Assembly (NCBI GenBank): GCA_947627505.1
Contig: CANQWG010000001.1
Coordinates: 9,216 to 73,215, forward strand
DNA from: an uncultured Bacilli bacterium
GTDB taxonomy: Bacteria; Bacillota_I; Bacilli_A; RFN20; CAG-449
Direction: 5' to 3'
Length of the DNA stretch: 64,000 bases
Shown here: positions 36,523-59,871 of the stretch, in pieces
How positions within the stretch are numbered: position 1 is the stretch's first letter
How the letters are laid out: every line of letters begins with the position of its first letter
Program-made: the position numbers and the translations under genes
The notes under the pieces: model-generated
Told to the model about the DNA's origin: nothing
What the model saw: only the letters and a program-made list of their open reading frames with translations
The model's database searches: none

Positions 36523-36605
36523 GCCCTCTTGGCGGAACTGGCAGACGCGCTAGACTTAGGATCTAGTTCTCACGAGTGCGGGTTCAAATCCCGTGGAGGG
36601 CACCA
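36523..36605 (+). tRNA. tRNA-Leu (anticodon TAG), long variable arm
   Basis: Acceptor GCCCTCT/GGAGGGC, anticodon stem CTAGA/TCTAG with loop CTTAGGA, long variable arm, CCA. Confidence 0.85.
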
Positions 36606-36618
36606 TTTGTTATTAAAT

Positions 36619-36640
36619 GCCCTATTTCTAGGGTTTTTTT
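36619..36640 (+). terminator. Rho-independent terminator downstream of tRNA-Leu(TAG)
   Basis: Hairpin GCCCTATTTCTAGGGT followed by T7. Confidence 0.6.
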
Positions 36641-36890
36641 ATTCTCACGTAAAGGAATTGTAAGGGAAAATTTTAATGGTTCAAATTTTTAGATTTGTAA
36701 AATACATCTCACACTTATGTTATAGCCTTGGTGGTTTGCATTCTTTTGACATTTATTAAAAACGAATAGATTCACCTAAAAATAGGATTTTTTGAAATTC
36801 GTTTTTAATATCAAAACTATCTTAATTTGACAAAAAGACTTAACAATAATAAAATTGAATTACTAATTTTAATAAAAACTAGGAGATTTT

Positions 36891-37157
36891 ATGGATTATA
36901 TATACTATACAAAAAATACTTGTTCTAAAAGAATTCAAGTATCACTAGATGGTAATGTTGTTAGTAGCGTGAAATTTTTAGATGGTGGATGTCCTGGAAA
37001 TTTACAAGCTCTTCCTCGCTTGGTTGCCGGTATGACTGTGACTGTAGAGGAGGTTGAAAAAAAATTAAGTGGTATTAACTGTGGATATCGTGGCACTTCT
37101 TGCGCTGATCAATTATCAAAAGCGGTAAGAGAAGCATATCAAAAACTGCATTCATAA
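36891..37157 (+). CDS. TSCPD-domain small protein (TIGR03905-like, 4-Cys)
   Basis: 88 aa with GGCPGNLQAL and GYRGTSCADQL motifs. Confidence 0.5.
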   Translation: MDYIYYTKNTCSKRIQVSLDGNVVSSVKFLDGGCPGNLQALPRLVAGMTVTVEEVEKKLSGINCGYRGTSCADQLSKAVREAYQKLHS

Positions 37158-37177
37158 ATTTAAAATTTGGTGTCATT

Positions 37178-37618
37178 ATGGAAGAGTATTTAAAATTAGA
37201 AGGCCAAATTTGCTTTCCGCTTTATGTTTGTTCAAAAGAAATTATTAGAAAATATAAACCATTTCTAGAAGAATTAAATTTAACATATACCCAATATATT
37301 ACGATGTTGGTGCTTTGGGAAGTTGAAAGCATCAATGTTACAGATTTAGGTGAAAGACTTTACCTTGATTCAGGAACATTGACACCCTTGTTGAAAAAAC
37401 TTGAAACTAAAGGTTATATAACTAGAAAAAGAGGCAATGTCGATGAGCGGAATTTGATTGTGACAATCACTGAAAAAGGTTTGGCTTTAAAAGAAAAGGC
37501 AAAGCCGATTCCATGGCAACTTGCTTCTTATGTAAAACTAGAAAAGGAAGAGGTTGTTGCGTTATATAAAATTTCACGCAAATTGATGAATGCTTTGCAA
37601 GATAAAAAAAGGGACTAA
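37178..37618 (+). CDS. MarR-family regulator (OhrR-like)
   Basis: LTYTQYITMLVLWE…LTPLLKKLETKGYITRKR is a classic MarR/OhrR wing-helix. Confidence 0.7.
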   Translation: MEEYLKLEGQICFPLYVCSKEIIRKYKPFLEELNLTYTQYITMLVLWEVESINVTDLGERLYLDSGTLTPLLKKLETKGYITRKRGNVDERNLIVTITEKGLALKEKAKPIPWQLASYVKLEKEEVVALYKISRKLMNALQDKKRD

Positions 37619-37685
37619 CTTGAGTCACCTTTTTTTATAAAAGCATCTATAATAAAAAAAGCCTATTTACTAGGCGATTAATAAT

Positions 37686-37771
37686 TGGTGCCGCTGGTCG
37701 GACTCGAACCGACAAGGATGCACTCCGCTCGATTTTGAGTCGAGTTTGTTTACCAATTTCAACACAGCGGC
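37686..37771 (-). tRNA. tRNA-Leu (anticodon CAA), long variable arm
   Basis: The reverse complement gives acceptor GCCGCTG/CAGCGGC, anticodon stem CTCGA/TCGAG with loop CTCAAAA, a long variable arm and CCA. Confidence 0.85.
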
Positions 37772-37874
37772 ATTTCGCAATGAGCATTCATATTTTACCA
37801 TATTCTATTTTTAAATCAATAAAATTTCTAGGATTCTATTAGATTACTTTGATGAGGAGACGAGGTGATATAGT

Positions 37875-38813
37875 ATGAGCAAGCATCGAATTATTTTAAA
37901 AGAAATCGCTGAAGAAGTAAACTATTCCATTAACACCGTTTCAAGAGCGCTTCGCGATTGTGTCGACATTAGCGATCGAACTAAAAAGATCATTCGCGAA
38001 AAAGCAATCGAATTAGGATATTACATTGAAAAAAAACCACTTTATACGCGTATAAAGAATCGTCCGCTTATCGCCTTTGTTTATAATAATTTTTTCGATT
38101 ATTATTTTATCAAAATGTCAGATATAATACTTAAATATTTTGAAGATAAATATGAGTCGGTATTTATCTTTAGGCAAATCAAGAAAGAAAAAATCGGTTT
38201 GGATGATTTGAAATTTTTAATGGATAATGATGTAGAAATCATCATATCTTATATTAATTTTGAAAAAGATGTTTTGAATTTTGTTGAATTATATGGTCTT
38301 ACAGTGGTGCTAATCGGTTTTAATTCGCGCTTTTTAAAATGTAATTGTGCTTATTGTGACGAAAGGAAAAAAATAAATTTGGCAGTCGACTATTTCCTAA
38401 AACAACGTATTCACAAAGTGTATTATATTTTGGATTCTGATCTTTTGAAAGCAAAAGAAATGAAAGATCTATTTAATAAAAAATATTTAAAAAAAACTTT
38501 GGGAACAAGTGTGGAATATATTGATCTTAATCATTTTGAAGATCAACTTAATGAAAACACACTGCATTCTAAAGATGGCTTTTTATGTTCAAGTAGCGTT
38601 AGTGTTGAAAAAATAAAAAAATTGAAAAGTATAAAAAATAATCTTATCTTTATTATAAACGATAATTTTGAATGTGCGGATTTTAATGTAGTTAGTGTTA
38701 CTTTAAATTATGAAGAAGTTGCAGAAGAAATATGCAATATTGTGTATAAACTTTTAGAAGGTAAAAAAGATATTTATCATAAAATAATATATGATGTTTA
38801 TATAAAAGAATAA
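37875..38813 (+). CDS. LacI-like transcriptional regulator
   Basis: N-terminal HTH IILKEIAEEVNYSINTVSRALRD. The C-terminal domain is divergent. Confidence 0.55.
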   Translation: MSKHRIILKEIAEEVNYSINTVSRALRDCVDISDRTKKIIREKAIELGYYIEKKPLYTRIKNRPLIAFVYNNFFDYYFIKMSDIILKYFEDKYESVFIFRQIKKEKIGLDDLKFLMDNDVEIIISYINFEKDVLNFVELYGLTVVLIGFNSRFLKCNCAYCDERKKINLAVDYFLKQRIHKVYYILDSDLLKAKEMKDLFNKKYLKKTLGTSVEYIDLNHFEDQLNENTLHSKDGFLCSSSVSVEKIKKLKSIKNNLIFIINDNFECADFNVVSVTLNYEEVAEEICNIVYKLLEGKKDIYHKIIYDVYIKE

Positions 38814-38888
38814 GAGCGAAAAGATTTAGCAAACTAATCGAAACACTTGATTTTTCTTTTTATAAAAATTATTATAAAAAAGCCTTTT

Positions 38889-38964
38889 GCCGACATAGCT
38901 CAATTGGCAGAGCAATTGATTTGTAATCAATAGGTTGGCGGTTCGATTCCGTTTGTCGGCACCA
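38889..38964 (+). tRNA. tRNA-Thr (anticodon TGT)
   Basis: Acceptor GCCGACA/TGTCGGC, anticodon stem ATTGA/TCAAT with loop TTTGTAA, T-loop TTCGATT, CCA. Confidence 0.8.
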
Positions 38965-38976
38965 TTAAGCAACATT

Positions 38977-38999
38977 AGCCCTAGAAATAGGGCTTTTTT
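38977..38999 (+). terminator. Rho-independent terminator downstream of tRNA-Thr
   Basis: Hairpin AGCCCTAGAAATAGGGCT followed by T6. Confidence 0.6.
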
Positions 39000-39166
39000 A
39001 CTTCTATGTAAGGGAATTGTAAGAGAAAACGTAAGGTAAAAATTTTCTAATGGTGCAATTTTTAGTGTTTGTGTAATACGATTTAAGTAACAAAAAAATA
39101 AAAAAGGGATTATAAGCTTTTTTGTCTTCTTAATAATCCCTTTCATAAATATTTAACAAGTATACT

Positions 39167-40321
39167 TTATTTAAAAATTTTATCAATGAGACCAACGGTT
39201 TCGTTAGGAAATATATGTGAATAAGTATCTAAAGTTTCTTTAACAGAACTGTGCCTTAAATGCTTGCTTACAATTAAAGGAGATATACCTGCATTTATCA
39301 TTCGTGAAGCGCAACTATGTCTTAAGCCATGAAATTTTATATGCGATATATTAGCATCTTTAGCGTGCTTATCCATTATTCTTCTAATAGTTGTTCTAGA
39401 AGTGTGTTTATGACCGAAAAACATATAATCATCATCTGTGGCATACATATCTTCTTTTAGTTTTATTAAATCATTTGTTAGATCTTCGGACATAGAAACT
39501 GTTCCGTGACTACTAGCGGTTTTAGCATCATCTAAATTTCCGCTGCTATCCATGCTTTTGTTTATATTGATTGTTTTTGCTATTGGATTAAAATCACTCC
39601 ACTTAAGTGGTATAAGTTCACCAATTCTTAAACCGCAAACATATGTCGTTTTAAATAATAATCTCCAAATATCATCTTTTTCGAAAGTAGCGTAGAATTT
39701 ATCCCATTCTTCGTTGGTCCAAAAAGATAATGATTCTTTACTTGATGAAATAGATTCCCTAATAGGTTTAATCAATACTTTTAATTTTCTATATAGTTCA
39801 TAAGATATATATTCATGGTCGGATGCATATTCTAACATATTTTTTAATAGTAAGAGTATTCGATTTTTTCTTTTTGACTTAATTGTTTTAATGTTTATAA
39901 TTTTAGCTTTAAAATTTTCTATTGTATTTATCGTAAATGCTTTTTCTAACGATAAAGAAATTGAAAAGTTAGGCAAAATATATTTCTTAATCATTAAATT
40001 TTTATTGTAAGTAGTTTGTGTTTTTAGCATTGATTTGCACTCGGTTATAAATAATTTAGATAATTCATAAAGCGTTATAGAAGCTTCAGAGTGCAAATAT
40101 AATTTCCTTCTTTTTTTATCTTTTTCTATTTCTTCAGCTTCTATTGCTTGGACAAACTTTTTGCCACGTTCTTTTGTCCATTCTTTATTGTATATACTAA
40201 TTGTTTTAAACGTTCCATCTGGTAATTTTAAATTATAACATATAAAATATCTTTTTCTTGATTTGTTGTAGCAAATACTCATTGTTTTTTCCTCCTTATT
40301 TTTGTTATAATAGAGGAGCAA
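39167..40321 (-). CDS. Phage tyrosine integrase (site-specific recombinase)
   Basis: 384 aa. The C-terminal catalytic region HGLRHSCASRMINAGI…LRHSSVKETLDTYSHIF carries the R-H-R-Y signature. It sits next to tRNA-Thr. Confidence 0.85.
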   Translation of the reverse strand: MLLYYNKNKEEKTMSICYNKSRKRYFICYNLKLPDGTFKTISIYNKEWTKERGKKFVQAIEAEEIEKDKKRRKLYLHSEASITLYELSKLFITECKSMLKTQTTYNKNLMIKKYILPNFSISLSLEKAFTINTIENFKAKIINIKTIKSKRKNRILLLLKNMLEYASDHEYISYELYRKLKVLIKPIRESISSSKESLSFWTNEEWDKFYATFEKDDIWRLLFKTTYVCGLRIGELIPLKWSDFNPIAKTININKSMDSSGNLDDAKTASSHGTVSMSEDLTNDLIKLKEDMYATDDDYMFFGHKHTSRTTIRRIMDKHAKDANISHIKFHGLRHSCASRMINAGISPLIVSKHLRHSSVKETLDTYSHIFPNETVGLIDKIFK

Positions 40322-57022: not shown

Positions 57023-58132
57023 TTATTCTTTTATGTCTAGAATTAAATTAGTTGCTTTTCTGGATTGGCCAATGGTGCTTAAAATGTTGTGCTTGATTCC
57101 TTCCTTTAGTCCTTGACCCCAACTCTTTAAATAAGCGATGCTGTTGTTAAGTAGATCATCGGTCATTATTTTTAGTGAAATCATGGAATAAAGGCTGGAT
57201 AACTCTGCGACAAGTTCTTCTTTGCTGTAAGTAGTAGAAGCGAATCCACAACTGCTAGTCAGGGTTTTCCGATTCAGAAGCGAGTGATGCCCTGTTGAGT
57301 GGGCGAACTCATGCAACATCGTTTGGTAGTAATTTTCAATCGATTCAAATTGGTTTTTAGTCGGAATTGTGACGCTATGATCAGAAGGGCGATAGAACGC
57401 GCAATTTTGTGCGACTTCTTTAAAAGTTAAGTGGGCTCTTTCAATGTAAGATTCTTTAATTTTTTCCACTTTTTGAATGCGCTTTAAATCATTCTCTGGC
57501 TGTTCTGCCTCATCTTCAATCTTCCACAACTCTTTAACATTCAAGCCGCAATCTTCCGCTTTGAATAAATATTCCAATACATATTGAAATTTTCGATATT
57601 TAAATTGTTGCTTGATATTATCCCATTCTAAACTTTCATTAAATTCTTTTTCGTTGCCTTTAGAATCGGTGTATTTGAATTTAACTTTGACTTCTAATTT
57701 TACACCGGCGATAAGTTGTTCTATTTCTTCTTTTAATTCTTCTTTGTCTTTCATTTCTTTTTCTAGTGCTTCTCGCTCGATAGTTGTTAAGTATTTGTAA
57801 AATTTACATGCTTTGTAGTTTGGCGTGCCTTTAGCGCCTTTGTTTAGATGCAATTTGTGCTCTTTGATTTGCTTAAAAGTGACATAGAATCCAGCCGGCA
57901 CAAAGAGTGGATCATATTCTTTCATCGTGTAAGTGTTAATTGCCAGCATGTCATCCATTACTAGGTCGTAAATACTTCTTGTTGTCTGATTGGTTGTAGT
58001 GGTCCAAGTCTTGCGCCACGCTTTAACGTTGCCAGATTCAATTATTTCGATAATTTTTTCGGCAGTTGCAACGTTCATTTGGTAGTCGTTCTTGACCGCC
58101 GGATTTTTAGATTTTAAATTTTCTTTCTTCAT
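57023..58132 (-). CDS. ArdC-like anti-restriction protein (N-terminal ssDNA-binding domain plus C-terminal HExxH metalloprotease)
   Basis: N-terminal …ESGNVKAWRKTWTTTT (DUF1738-like) and C-terminal MLHEFAHSTGHHSLLNR zincin motif. Start at MKKENLK. Confidence 0.55.
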   Translation of the reverse strand: MKKENLKSKNPAVKNDYQMNVATAEKIIEIIESGNVKAWRKTWTTTTNQTTRSIYDLVMDDMLAINTYTMKEYDPLFVPAGFYVTFKQIKEHKLHLNKGAKGTPNYKACKFYKYLTTIEREALEKEMKDKEELKEEIEQLIAGVKLEVKVKFKYTDSKGNEKEFNESLEWDNIKQQFKYRKFQYVLEYLFKAEDCGLNVKELWKIEDEAEQPENDLKRIQKVEKIKESYIERAHLTFKEVAQNCAFYRPSDHSVTIPTKNQFESIENYYQTMLHEFAHSTGHHSLLNRKTLTSSCGFASTTYSKEELVAELSSLYSMISLKIMTDDLLNNSIAYLKSWGQGLKEGIKHNILSTIGQSRKATNLILDIKE

Positions 58133-58183
58133 TTGGGTTTCCTCTTTCTTTCTGGCGTTTGTTTTGGTAGAATAGAGGCACAA

Positions 58184-59508
58184 ACGCCGTAAGGCCTTTG
58201 GGAATAGTCTTTTAATTGCTGGCAGGCATTTTAAGGCTATTTTTTAATTTAAGAAATATATATAAAACGCTATATAAAGCGTGTAAATATCCTAATTACA
58301 CAGGGGGACGATTTATTCTATTAGGTTTTCGCCTCTAATATTTGGCGCCGTCCGCGTCTATCGTGTCGTTAATTTCATTTGGCAGTGAAACGATATAACA
58401 TCTACCAAATATACAAGTTTGCAAAGAACGATTTTTTTGTTGTGTCTCCACAATTTGTTAAAGTCCCTTGCAATTCAGGGACTTATTGATTATAATTTAT
58501 TTGTGTTTTAGATAGGGCGATAAGTTATTTATCGTATCTATCTTTTTTTACTTCTACAATAATTTTTAGAAGTATAAACAAAGTAATAATAGTTATAATA
58601 CTATCCATACTCTGATTTACTCCAATAAATCAATAAGTGTAAATTGCAAAGAACCGTTAACGAGATTAACATTTTGCAATGCCTTTCTCATCGCTAGGTT
58701 GCCCTAACGACAAACACATCTTAATTGACTTTGAAATATTAGTCAAGCACAATTTTTCAATAATCGCTTTTTTGCGCAAAATTATATTACATGTAATATA
58801 AAAAAATTAAAAAATTTTTTCTTTTCTTTATTTATTTCTTTTACTTTTTATGGTTTTTTCTTCTTTCGATTTTTGGCTTCTGGAAGCAATCAGAGCGAAC
58901 AAAGAGCACAATAAAAAGCGCATTAGAAGCAACAGTCACAACGCGCCAAAGTTATAATTTTTTATATATTTCTTATCTTTAGATAATCTATTACTTAGTC
59001 TTTAAGTTTACTTAATCTATTAGTTATTTAATTATATAAATATATTTTAATTATTATTAAATATATAATACTTACTTTAGATACTATAAATGTATAGAGA
59101 ATATTATAAAAGCCGGAAATAGACATCGCTTGAAAAAGTAAAAAAAAAGAAATTAGTTATTATTAAATAACTAAAAGTTTTTAACGTGCACAATCTCTAT
59201 GAATTGCTCCAAAACAATAAAAAGCCCTAAAAATAAGCACTTTTTAAAAAGTGTAAGGGAATTTTTAAGAATTTACTAGTTGCAAGGGTATTAAATAGTA
59301 CTAGTAATATAAGACATCTATCAATCAACCAAGACCAACACCCACCCCCCATACCGGCGACAAAGGGGGAGGGTGGCAAAAATAAAACAATGTCTCAAAA
59401 TAAATTTTTTTCATTTTTAAGAGAAACATAGGAGGGTGTCTTACTACCTTTTTTCTACCTAGCACTTAGAATGGAGCGAATTTTAAAATTAAGTTGAGGT
59501 GAAGTGTC
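58184..59508. other. 1.3-kb AT-rich non-coding region between the antisense island and the terminase genes. It contains hairpins and short repeats and is a candidate pac/cos and promoter region.
   Basis: No ORF over 60 aa on either strand. Hairpins at 58465-58490 (AAGTCCCT…AGGGACTT) and 59340-59380 (CCCACCCCCC…GGGGGAGGGTGG). TTACTTA-type repeats at 58990-59040. Confidence 0.5.
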
Positions 59509-59871
59509 ATGAGCAAAAAGATCAAAAGTCAATTGAATATGTTGCCGAACTATGAGCAAAACATGTATAGAGGCATTAAAAATAGTACAGTTGATGAATT
59601 AAAAGAAAATTCTCTTATTAGGCGTTCTTTATGTATGGCACTTGGGTCACCTGTAGACATGAAGCTAGAAACAGGAGAAATAGCTAGTGTTACGGTTGCA
59701 GATGTAGTTGTTGCGCGCACGCTTCAAGACGCAATTCAAAAACCCAGCGCATCCAAATTAAAAGATTTAGCTTTAATTACCGGCGAATTAAAGGAAAAGG
59801 CGGAAGTTACATTTAATTCACCCGAAAAACTATTTGGAGACATTGTAATTCATAATGACAGCAATAACTAA
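59509..59871 (+). CDS. Putative terminase small subunit
   Basis: 120 aa, directly upstream of and overlapping the large terminase gene. Called on position only. Confidence 0.35.
   Translation: MSKKIKSQLNMLPNYEQNMYRGIKNSTVDELKENSLIRRSLCMALGSPVDMKLETGEIASVTVADVVVARTLQDAIQKPSASKLKDLALITGELKEKAEVTFNSPEKLFGDIVIHNDSNN

Follow-up and report, generated by a model that had tools for sequence, protein, structure and literature searches.

Why should a repeat of about 90 bp occur twice behind tRNA genes, once directly beside the integrase gene of a prophage? This question was raised by a window of 64,000 nt (the whole stretch of DNA that was analysed) from contig CANQWG010000001.1 of an uncultured Bacilli bacterium (assembly GCA_947627505.1). 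The positions of the two copies given in an earlier note on this DNA, and its claim of a match above 80%, were borne out (Table 1). Global alignment gave 74 matches, 11 mismatches and 20 gap columns (87% identity over aligned pairs), and the local alignment score was 56 compared with 18.0 ± 2.8 (maximum 33) in 2000 dinucleotide shuffles (z = 13.5). As had also been described, a terminator-like hairpin opens both copies, and their similarity in the global alignment stops completely past AATAC. These two copies are the total for the window: the best non-self match of copy A on either strand of the 64 kb was copy B, the exact 17-mer GGAATTGTAAGRGAAAA occurred there only at the two copies, and no third copy was found. 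A 12-mer at 59252 is an isolated single unit of the kind listed in Table 1, and unit-like matches across the window (9, against 6.9 expected by chance) were not in excess.

Table 1. Features of the repeat-bearing region (positions are those of the 64,000-nt window)
Feature	Start	End	Strand	Remarks
tRNA-Leu(TAG)	36523	36605	+	3′ end GGGCACCA then TTTG; matches the GGCACCATT junction of this integrase family
Repeat copy A	36619	36705	+	3′ of tRNA-Leu(TAG)
Copy A terminator hairpin	36619	36641	+	GCCCTA-TTTC-TAGGG(T) + T run
Chromosomal segment between copies	36643	38965	.	97.3% identity to prophage-free L032
Copy A tandem units (2)	36649	36670	+	GTAAAGGAATT, GTAAGGGAAAA; candidate integrase arm-type sites, relic
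Copy A distal conserved block	36671	36705	+	TTTTAATGGTTCAAATTTTTAG..TTTGTAAAATAC; likeness to copy B ends at 36705
TSCPD gene	36891	37157		
MarR gene	37178	37618		
tRNA-Leu(CAA)	37686	37771	-	
LacI-like gene	37875	38813		
tRNA-Thr(TGT)	38889	38964	+	Integration target
Left prophage junction	38965	38966	.	End of homology to L032 empty site
Repeat copy B	38977	39079	+	3′ of tRNA-Thr(TGT)
Copy B terminator	38977	39000	+	AGCCCTA-GAAA-TAGGGCT + T run, -11.1 kcal/mol
Copy B tandem units (3)	39008	39041	+	GTAAGGGAATT, GTAAGAGAAAAc, GTAAGGTAAAA; candidate arm-type sites, int-proximal arm
Copy B distal conserved block	39042	39079	+	AATGGTGCAA at 39049-58, TTTTTAG, TTTGTGTAATAC
Hairpin + T run 3′ of integrase stop codon	39104	39145	-	Probably int terminator
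Tyrosine integrase, 371 aa	39167	40282	-	Catalytic domain, SAM-like core-binding domain, N-terminal module (residues 2-60)
CI/LexA-like repressor (HTH + S24 peptidase)	40490	41146	-	Start of prophage body

The most probable answer is that copy B is the int-proximal arm of a phage attachment site, placed behind tRNA-Thr by integration, and that copy A, behind tRNA-Leu(TAG), is what remains of an earlier integration by a related phage. A prophage-free genome of the same species (L032, GCA_947591215.1) matches the window from 36643 to 38965, and this homology stops 1 base beyond tRNA-Thr(TGT). Past that point L032 continues with TATGATTATAAAGAGCCTAAATTTAGGCTTTTTTT, a different terminator and then NYN, DUF2207 and LemA genes, and copy B and its units are absent from its unoccupied tRNA-Thr site. 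Given that the homology ends there and that copy B is missing, the comparison shows that copy B is inserted DNA, forming the first ~115 nt of the prophage. Relative to the unoccupied site the insertion begins at the tRNA gene, as expected of a tRNA-targeting element. The earlier note had placed copy B within attL beside the integrase, which agrees with the end of homology at 38965 and the position of the integrase gene; its junction at AATAC is displaced from that point. In the comparison with a prophage-free strain, of the kind that it had proposed, copy A was present in L032 and copy B absent, leaving an attB without the repeat.

The terminator of copy B is phage-supplied, serves the rebuilt tRNA-Thr and takes the place of the native terminator seen in L032. 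Unit 1 begins 44 nt past the tRNA CCA, and 2 of the 3 units depart from the consensus given below. Copy B had been said to carry a 12-bp internal duplication; it does have ~11-15 nt more than copy A, but this is a third tandem GTAAGnnAAAA unit, common to most relatives and not private to copy B, and because most relatives carry three units copy A more likely lost one. L055, L103/L143 and L052 have the distal block in their arms too, and the phage arm of the window extends on through the hairpin that follows the integrase gene. Scored against copy B, the arm of another phage (L055, 68) is a closer match than copy A (37). From comparison with relatives' attP, the core is presumed to be the 3′ end of tRNA-Thr(TGT) (about 38946-38964, ATTCCGTTTGTCGGCACCA). 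No second copy of this fragment, as a displaced core, was found within the window, and the prophage right end lies beyond it.

The integrase gene spans 39167-40282, not 39167-40321 as had been given. Its catalytic domain was assigned to PF00589 (E 2.9e-24), and R219, H318, R321, H344 and Y354, which complete the R, H-x-x-R, H, Y set, were invariant in 46 homologues. The N-terminal domain was unrecognised by Pfam. An AlphaFold model (pLDDT 88; 83-89 in the N-terminal domain) assigned residues 2-6, 11-19 and 25-36 to strands and residues 41-60 to a helix, and its top Foldseek matches were full-length lambda Int (1Z1B, 1Z1G; ~374 columns aligned). The integrase is thus predicted to have a lambda-Int-like N-terminal arm-binding fold, a three-stranded sheet plus a helix. 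Among named solved structures the best sequence matches were the Tn916/Tn1549-type integrases 6EN0, 6EMY and 6EMZ (E about 1e-20). These would be alike in being heterobivalent and in binding arm sites through an N-terminal domain, whereas Tn916 and Tn1549 are conjugative transposons with relaxed target choice and the integrase of the window phage is specific for tRNA genes. The closest solved structures also included an unnamed S. aureus integrase.

The prophage is ~49 kb long and leaves the window, reaching about 88 kb when window positions are continued past its end; its sequence was examined to about 84.1 kb on that scale, and its last gene (2364 aa) runs to about 87.6 kb. In IMG/VR, the 17-mer of the repeat and the pattern of the units gave chance matches only, and no relatives of the integrase were found. 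GenBank phages gave DNA matches at the tRNA only and integrase identities of at most about 31%. A candidate second integrase at 57023-58183 is actually an ArdC/zincin-like protein. A separate, unrelated element of ~190 nt was considered as a DGR template repeat and rejected, its mismatch spectrum being without adenine bias.

Relatives of the integrase (51-84% identity) were accompanied by a copy-B-type arm at tRNA-Thr(TGT), tRNA-Thr(GGT) and tRNA-Gly, in agreement with the earlier suggestion that tRNA genes are integration hotspots here. The layout is fixed, with units beginning 42-44 nt past the tRNA CCA. The unit consensus is GTAAGGGAAww (11-12 nt), two or three in tandem; the unit sequence varies by integrase clade (GTAAGGGAA, GTGTAAAAA, GTATGTAAA) and the position is constant. 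A block AATGGTKCAA is also conserved among arms. The integrase P0002 (84% identical) has an identical arm at tRNA-Thr(TGT) in L040/41 and at tRNA-Thr(GGT) in L042, which shows that the arm travels with the integrase. These two junctions have only GGCACCA in common. The crossover lies at the tRNA 3′ end, and the proposal that the integrase targets a post-tRNA sequence was not upheld.

Three unintegrated phage types displayed the attP itself. L076-79 (integrase 51%) carry, in order, a giant gene, a terminator, 2 units, ~170 nt, a terminator, 3 units and int; L073 (72%) has a P arm with 1 unit, a 19-nt tRNA-Thr 3′ fragment, a terminator, 2 units and int; and L080 (68%) has a 16-nt tRNA-Thr(GGT) fragment, a terminator and 3 units. 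A short core consisting of a tRNA 3′ fragment of 16-19 nt was thus seen in 2 of the 3 phages examined. Repeated arm-type sequences stand on both attP arms in relatives (2 + 3 units in L076, 1 + 2 in L073), and L081 and L126 have 2 units on the P arm. For the window phage the int-proximal arm, with its 3 units, is in view, and the two-armed arrangement comes from the relatives. Units flanking a short core on both sides are the signature of lambda-type arm sites. The units may be bound by the integrase, and the co-variation of unit sequence with integrase clade lends indirect support to such binding.

It is highly improbable that both copies are bacterial attB-like targets behind tRNA genes, with the phage crossover on the AATAC side of copy B. 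Such a crossover would account for a likeness that stops exactly at AATAC, on the integrase-facing side, and copy A is indeed chromosomal; but the unoccupied tRNA-Thr of L032 is without copy B and its homology ends at 38965, the native tRNA-Gly flank at the L081 attR likewise has no units, identical arms accompany one integrase to two tRNAs, and the attP sites of free phages include the terminator and units. Because of the empty site in L032, the arm at two tRNA-Thr genes and the attP of relatives, the repeat is read as phage DNA with a crossover at the tRNA 3′ end, and the earlier description of it as an attB-like bacterial target is abandoned.

Descent in the opposite direction is quite unlikely as well. 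Copy A would then be the native flank of tRNA-Leu(TAG), picked up by aberrant excision ("chromosome jumping", a model discussed for other phages; PMC8074189) and now present as copy B. In its favour, copy A is shared by the two strains of the species, the model has that precedent, and native terminators here have a like form (GCCTA-loop-TAGGC-T7). Against this, units are also seen in phages from other hosts and behind other tRNAs, they stand on the P arm, where the tRNA flank is absent, their sequence co-varies with integrase clade, and copy A is a more distant match to copy B than the arm of another phage is.

The segment between the two copies is conserved at 97.3% in L032, therefore the repeats do not delimit a mobile unit. 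No units were found between 36671 and 39007, and no second tRNA-Leu 3′ fragment was found at the other end of the 2.3-kb segment. A CIME-like element (integrase-less and att-flanked) over this segment was accordingly rejected, there being no second att site and the segment being conserved chromosome in L032.

Copy A is built like the relatives' arms, with unit 1 beginning 44 nt past the tRNA CCA and a hairpin whose form equals that of the phage-supplied terminator of copy B. Its likeness is mosaic: the segment right after tRNA-Leu(TAG), TTTGTTATTAAATGCC, resembles the arm of the phage with the 84%-identical integrase, and the distal part resembles copy B. It is chromosomal, with TSCPD and MarR as neighbours and no adjacent integrase or phage gene, and is carried by the window strain and by L032, differing between them (GGG vs GAG). 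This homology to a phage att arm without neighbouring phage genes agrees with the relic-like second site proposed earlier. Most likely, a related phage once integrated at tRNA-Leu(TAG), which likewise has GGCACCATT as its 3′ end, and left copy A behind as a scar; the direction of descent is the parsimonious one. No phage with an integrase beside tRNA-Leu(TAG) was found, and a JGI scan for arms there gave no matches.

The repeat is extremely improbable as a small RNA or as a promoter or operator of adjacent genes. Copy A has a minus-strand promoter-like match (TTGAAC-16-TACAAT), and the conserved AATGGTKCAA block could be taken the same way; yet that spacing is broken in copy B by the third unit, the match is missing from other arms, and promoter-like matches in the region (18, against 16.8 in shuffles) were not in excess. 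Rfam covariance models returned tRNAs only, at the gathering threshold and at E<=1, so the small-RNA alternative in the earlier note found no family to support it.

Copy A is not the only arm of its kind. L053 has an arm and a ~100-nt integrase 3′ stump without an integrase; in L052, L057 and L060 cellular genes (TetR, GNAT, isochorismatase, Ham1, NUDIX) come after the arm; and L050, of the same species, has an arm without integrase or phage genes inside ~4.5 kb. In L126 the attR of a newer prophage abuts an arm-only copy and for this reason resembles a full attP. Many of these relics have similar extents, which random deletion does not fully explain. Copy A and similar copies might be a retained functional cassette that terminates the tRNA and/or forms a "pre-armed" site, by which later integration or excision is altered or integrase titrated. 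This we regard as quite unlikely. Arm-only copies do lie at several tRNAs beside ordinary genes, the L126 arrangement looks like a full attP, and the copy A hairpin is the sole terminator of tRNA-Leu, but copy A is without the third unit and varies between strains, and the apparent conservation is an ascertainment effect because the arm search pattern required two intact units.

On the reading of phage arm and scar, a temperate phage of ~49 kb would have entered tRNA-Thr(TGT) by recombination at the very 3′ end of the gene, copy B being the P′ arm of its attachment site. After the tRNA-derived core, the phage brings its own rho-independent terminator, supplanting the native one, then units at 42-44 nt past CCA and the conserved block. 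The GTAAGGGAAww units are most likely arm-type sites to which the integrase, as a heterobivalent tyrosine recombinase of the lambda type, would bind with its N-terminal domain; because matching units stand on the other attP arm in relatives, it may bridge arms and core into a recombination complex. A related phage would once have entered tRNA-Leu(TAG) and later lost its integrase and body by deletion, the surviving scar now supplying the tRNA-Leu terminator. At the prophage right end, a short tRNA-Thr 3′ fragment (ATTCCGTTTGTCGGCACCA) would be expected, then TATGATTATAAAGAGCC / TATGATTATAAAGAGCCTAAATTTAGGC; the exact core and P arm of the window phage are here modelled on those of relatives.

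In lambda, arm-type sites P′1-P′3 lie next to int and P1-P2 on the other arm. The window phage is comparable in its predicted three-domain tyrosine integrase, in tandem direct repeats apart from the core (3 on the int-proximal arm, 1-2 on the other arm in relatives), and in an int-proximal arm that remains in attL beside int after integration; the three candidate units of copy B would be analogous to P′1-P′3. It differs in that the core is a tRNA gene 3′ end and not an intergenic 15-bp site, a terminator hairpin stands between core and candidate arm sites, int lies beside the other arm in some relatives (L074, L081, L126), and the candidate units are unrelated in sequence to lambda's.

Prophages and genomic islands that target tRNA genes are covered by the Islander definition (PMC4383910), and phage mv4 integrates at a tRNA-Ser 3′ end (bioRxiv 10.1101/2023.11.06.565760). 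Here too the element enters a tRNA gene and makes it whole again from the 3′-end copy that it carries, the integrase adjoins the regenerated tRNA, and relatives' attP carry a 16-19-nt tRNA 3′ fragment. The shared junction, in contrast, can be as short as GGCACCA, so that one phage can use two tRNA-Thr isoacceptors. In Oenococcus oeni, prophage remnants and degenerate att sites occur at tRNA loci (PMC8074189); there as here old scars persist at tRNA sites and can adjoin newer prophages, and the direct repeats of attP arms correspond with integrase N-termini. The O. oeni remnants are islands of 5-20 kb; copy A, of about 100 nt and devoid of genes, is a minimal scar by comparison.

For annotation, the left prophage boundary is 38965/38966, not 39085, and the tRNA-Thr terminator in the lysogen is phage DNA. 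There is a small chance that the cassette of terminator and units does more than mark an old integration and that this lineage routinely overwrites native tRNA 3′ flanks. Arm-only copies would then persist as tRNA terminators and "pre-armed" attB sites, later integration would make attR a complete attP-like site, as in L126, and excision directionality could be altered, re-integration favoured or integrase titrated. On the preferred reading, nothing here goes beyond ordinary phage biology, seen in an uncultured gut bacterium, and a new mechanism is not implied. The arrangement of tRNA CCA, about 43 nt and tandem GTAAGGGAA is a usable signature that finds attL, attP and scars, and it serves an uncultured gut-phage lineage absent from IMG/VR and GenBank phages. 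One integrase family hops among tRNA-Thr, tRNA-Gly and probably tRNA-Leu, with the short core swapped and the arms kept.

The direct repeat behind tRNA-Leu(TAG) (copy A) and tRNA-Thr(TGT) (copy B) was confirmed by global alignment, which gave 74 matches, 11 mismatches and 20 gap columns (87% over aligned pairs), and by local alignment, with a score of 56 against 18.0 ± 2.8 in dinucleotide shuffles (z = 13.5). Copy B was the best match to copy A anywhere in the 64 kb, the longest conserved word of the repeat occurred in the window only in these two copies, and no third copy was found in the window. Both copies open with a terminator-like hairpin and its T run, followed by tandem 11–12-nt units, two in copy A (GTAAAGGAATT and GTAAGGGAAAA) and three in copy B (GTAAGGGAATT, GTAAGAGAAAAc and GTAAGGTAAAA), and then by a distal block of AATGGTKCAA, TTTTTAG and TTTGTnnAATAC. 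As the earlier note described, the copies diverge after AATAC, beyond which all similarity is gone; the extra sequence that it took for an internal duplication in copy B is present but is the third tandem unit.

Four tRNA terminators, three in the window and one in a prophage-free strain (L032), are built to a common pattern, GCC(C)TA-loop-TAGG(G)C-T7-ATT. On the opposite strand AATGGTKCAA reads TTGMACCATT, which resembles an inverted tRNA 3' end with its first flanking bases (GCACCATT); this block also occurs, at varying distance from the units, in the att-site flanks (arms) of the related loci L055, L052 and L103/L143.

Positions of the repeat copies, neighboring features and related sites (window coordinates unless a locus is named)
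Feature	Position	Strand	Remarks
tRNA-Leu(TAG)	36523-36605
Copy A	36619-36705		direct repeat after tRNA-Leu(TAG)
Shared-form terminator, copy A	36619-36641		loop TTTC
AATGGTKCAA, copy A	36675-36684
Shared-form terminator, tRNA-Leu(CAA)/MarR	37661-37684		bidirectional; minus strand
tRNA-Thr(TGT)	38889-38964
Copy B	38977-39079		direct repeat after tRNA-Thr(TGT)
Shared-form terminator, copy B	38977-39000		loop GAAA, complement of copy A loop
AATGGTKCAA, copy B	39049-39058
Second hairpin			downstream of copy B
Tyrosine integrase, 371 aa	39167-40282	-	stop codon faces copy B
Shared-form terminator, native tRNA-Thr	L032 2408-2430
~150-190-nt segment	L032 2712-2888		downstream of empty tRNA-Thr site
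~150-190-nt segment	L053 5568-5691, 6099-6252		twice in remnant
~150-190-nt segment	L069 19632-19816
attP, integrase 72%	L073		giant gene, one-unit P arm, 19-nt tRNA-Thr 3' fragment ATTCCGATAGACGGCACCA, terminator, two units, int
attP, integrase 68%	L080		16-nt tRNA-Thr(GGT) fragment, terminator, three GTATGTAAA units
attP, integrase 51%	L076-79		giant gene, terminator, two units, ~170 nt, terminator, three units, int

L032 (NCBI GCA_947591215.1, "uncultured Bacilli bacterium Lapin-005__bin97"), of the same species, was reached through exact-protein look-ups with the MarR gene. L032 matched window positions 36643-38965 at 97.3%, and past ...GGCACCAT it continued with a different terminator (TATGATTATAAAGAGCCTAAATTTAGGCTTTTTTT) and then NYN, DUF2207, LemA and GtrA genes; copy B and the units were absent from this locus. 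Given that L032 lacks copy B and that homology ends at 38965, everything to the right of 38965, copy B included, is inserted DNA. On this comparison of sequences the crossover lies at the tRNA 3' end, and not at AATAC. The interpretation of the repeat in the earlier note was partly right.

Beyond the integrase lie a CI/LexA-like repressor and then the early genes YqaJ, RecT, SSB and RusA, and the prophage extends past the window end. Its sequence was followed in two hops to 84.1 kb in window-equivalent coordinates, where a 2364-aa gene was still running. The counterpart of this gene in relatives directly adjoins attP, the phage attachment site, so the prophage is about 49 kb (38966 to ~88 kb); its core (the tRNA 3'-end fragment) and P arm (the flank across the core from copy B) we infer from these relatives. 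Across the lineage the terminal gene is 2058-2364 aa and abuts attP (L069 17234 onward; L076 4001-10177), with a PBECR3 domain in L076. A 386-aa ORF (57023-58183, minus strand), considered as a second integrase on size and strand, was rejected as an anti-restriction-like ArdC-N plus zincin metallopeptidase. An ORF-free 1.3-kb stretch (58200-59500) separates this gene from the first ORF of the late region, at 59509, and contains hairpins, a single isolated GTAAGGGAATT unit (59253-59263) and a segment (58440-58556) resembling L053 5740-5830; no Rfam family was found there at the gathering threshold. An intergenic segment of ~150-190 nt, which has ~75% identity to a stretch inside the 2364-aa gene and includes an RBS-plus-ATG-like motif, is not in Rfam. 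A reverse transcriptase is encoded nearby in relatives (L076 1491-2501), and a DGR reading of the segment was rejected because its mismatch spectrum is not DGR-like.

The window integrase has many homologues in metagenomes. An integrase 84% identical to it (P0002) has one and the same arm, GGCACCA/TTTGTTTTAAATGCC...GTAAGGGAAAA GTAAGGGAATTT GCTAGGGA (slash, junction), behind two different targets, which are tRNA-Thr(TGT) in L040/L041 and, in L042, tRNA-Thr(GGT); only ...GGCACCA is common to the two junctions. Loci with integrases 70-71% identical (L036-39) have the same arm layout with another unit, GTGTAAAAA. The attP was read directly from unintegrated phage contigs (L073, L080 and L076-79). 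In L074, L081 and L126 the integrase gene adjoins the other arm, the order of core, terminator and units being unchanged; L143 and L103 are lysogens of this reversed-integrase type. In all these loci the first unit begins 42-44 nt past the tRNA CCA. Both arms carry the units in direct orientation, their distance from the core is fixed and their sequence varies with the integrase clade; these are hallmarks of lambda-type attP arm-type sites.

Conserved catalytic residues are present in the window integrase, and in a confidently predicted model (pLDDT 88) three N-terminal strands and a helix precede the SAM-like domain. Its best fold matches were structures of full-length lambda Int, with alignments spanning the whole protein, and its closest solved relative by sequence, apart from the Staphylococcus aureus integrase 3NKH, was Tn1549 Int. 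The modeled fold fits an integrase of the heterobivalent type, and we infer that it binds the units.

Copy A is chromosomal: in L032 and L033 the stretch from 36643 onward runs directly into the region upstream of TSCPD, and L054, a second contig of the same MAG, carries tRNA-Arg, tRNA-Arg, tRNA-Leu(TAG) and the whole of copy A. No integrase or phage gene lies beside it, and the 2.3-kb segment between the copies holds no att-like partner site. The tRNA-Leu(TAG) 3' end, GGGCACCA/TTTG, has the same junction string as the integrase family. Within copy A, the opening bases (TTTGTTATTAAATGCC) are similar to the P0002 phage arm and the distal part to copy B. Arm-only copies elsewhere are clear precedents. 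In L053 (5311-5560), the arm behind tRNA-Thr(GGT) and the arm of the P0002 phage are identical, and the integrase gene, next in order, is reduced to its final ~100 nt; other phage fragments are kept but no integrase, and the locus is clearly a deletion remnant. L052, L057 and L060 have arm-only copies behind tRNA-Gly genes, with ordinary cellular genes next. In L050 (3380-3460; CANQCZ010000011.1, same species), tRNA-Gly(CCC), a terminator and three perfect GTAAGGGAA units are followed by two small ORFs and a gene of the GNAT family, and neither an integrase nor phage genes lie within ~4.5 kb; the species thus has at least two arm-only copies and, in the window strain, one live attL (left prophage end). 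In L126 (960-1180), the attR (right end) of a newer prophage, with int, two P-arm units and a 19-nt tRNA-Gly fragment, adjoins a scar: what the bacterial side already holds, a terminator plus three units, is identical to the L060 copy, and its attR therefore resembles a complete attP.

Given its chromosomal context, the lack of an adjoining integrase, the family junction string and these precedents, we read copy A as a scar left at tRNA-Leu(TAG) by a related phage that integrated earlier. Less likely is the opposite course, a native copy A that the phage captured from its host, since phages of other hosts also carry the units, as does the P arm, and the arm of another phage (L055) is nearer to copy B than copy A is.

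The prophage-free lineage has an element with an IS91-type transposase gene (Zn_Tnp_IS91 and Y2_Tnp domains; L033 120-1830, L032 1-76) in place of the part of copy A that holds the tRNA-Leu terminator. This element ends in ...TTTTGTTC, directly left of TCTCACG and the units, where it adjoins the position equivalent to window 36643. The prophage-free MAG thus has ~100 nt of copy A on two contigs (L054 carrying the full copy), which could be a duplication or strain mixture.

The phage belongs to an uncultured lineage that neither IMG/VR nor the GenBank phage set contains. An element integrating at a tRNA 3' end restores the tRNA (PMC4383910), and tRNA sites are well known to hold prophage remnants (PMC8074189). 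The design here is the standard lambda-type attachment site with tRNA 3'-end targeting; its particulars are the terminator between core and arm sites, the strict 42-44-nt spacing, a shared junction short enough for several isoacceptors, and the abundance of arm-only scars.
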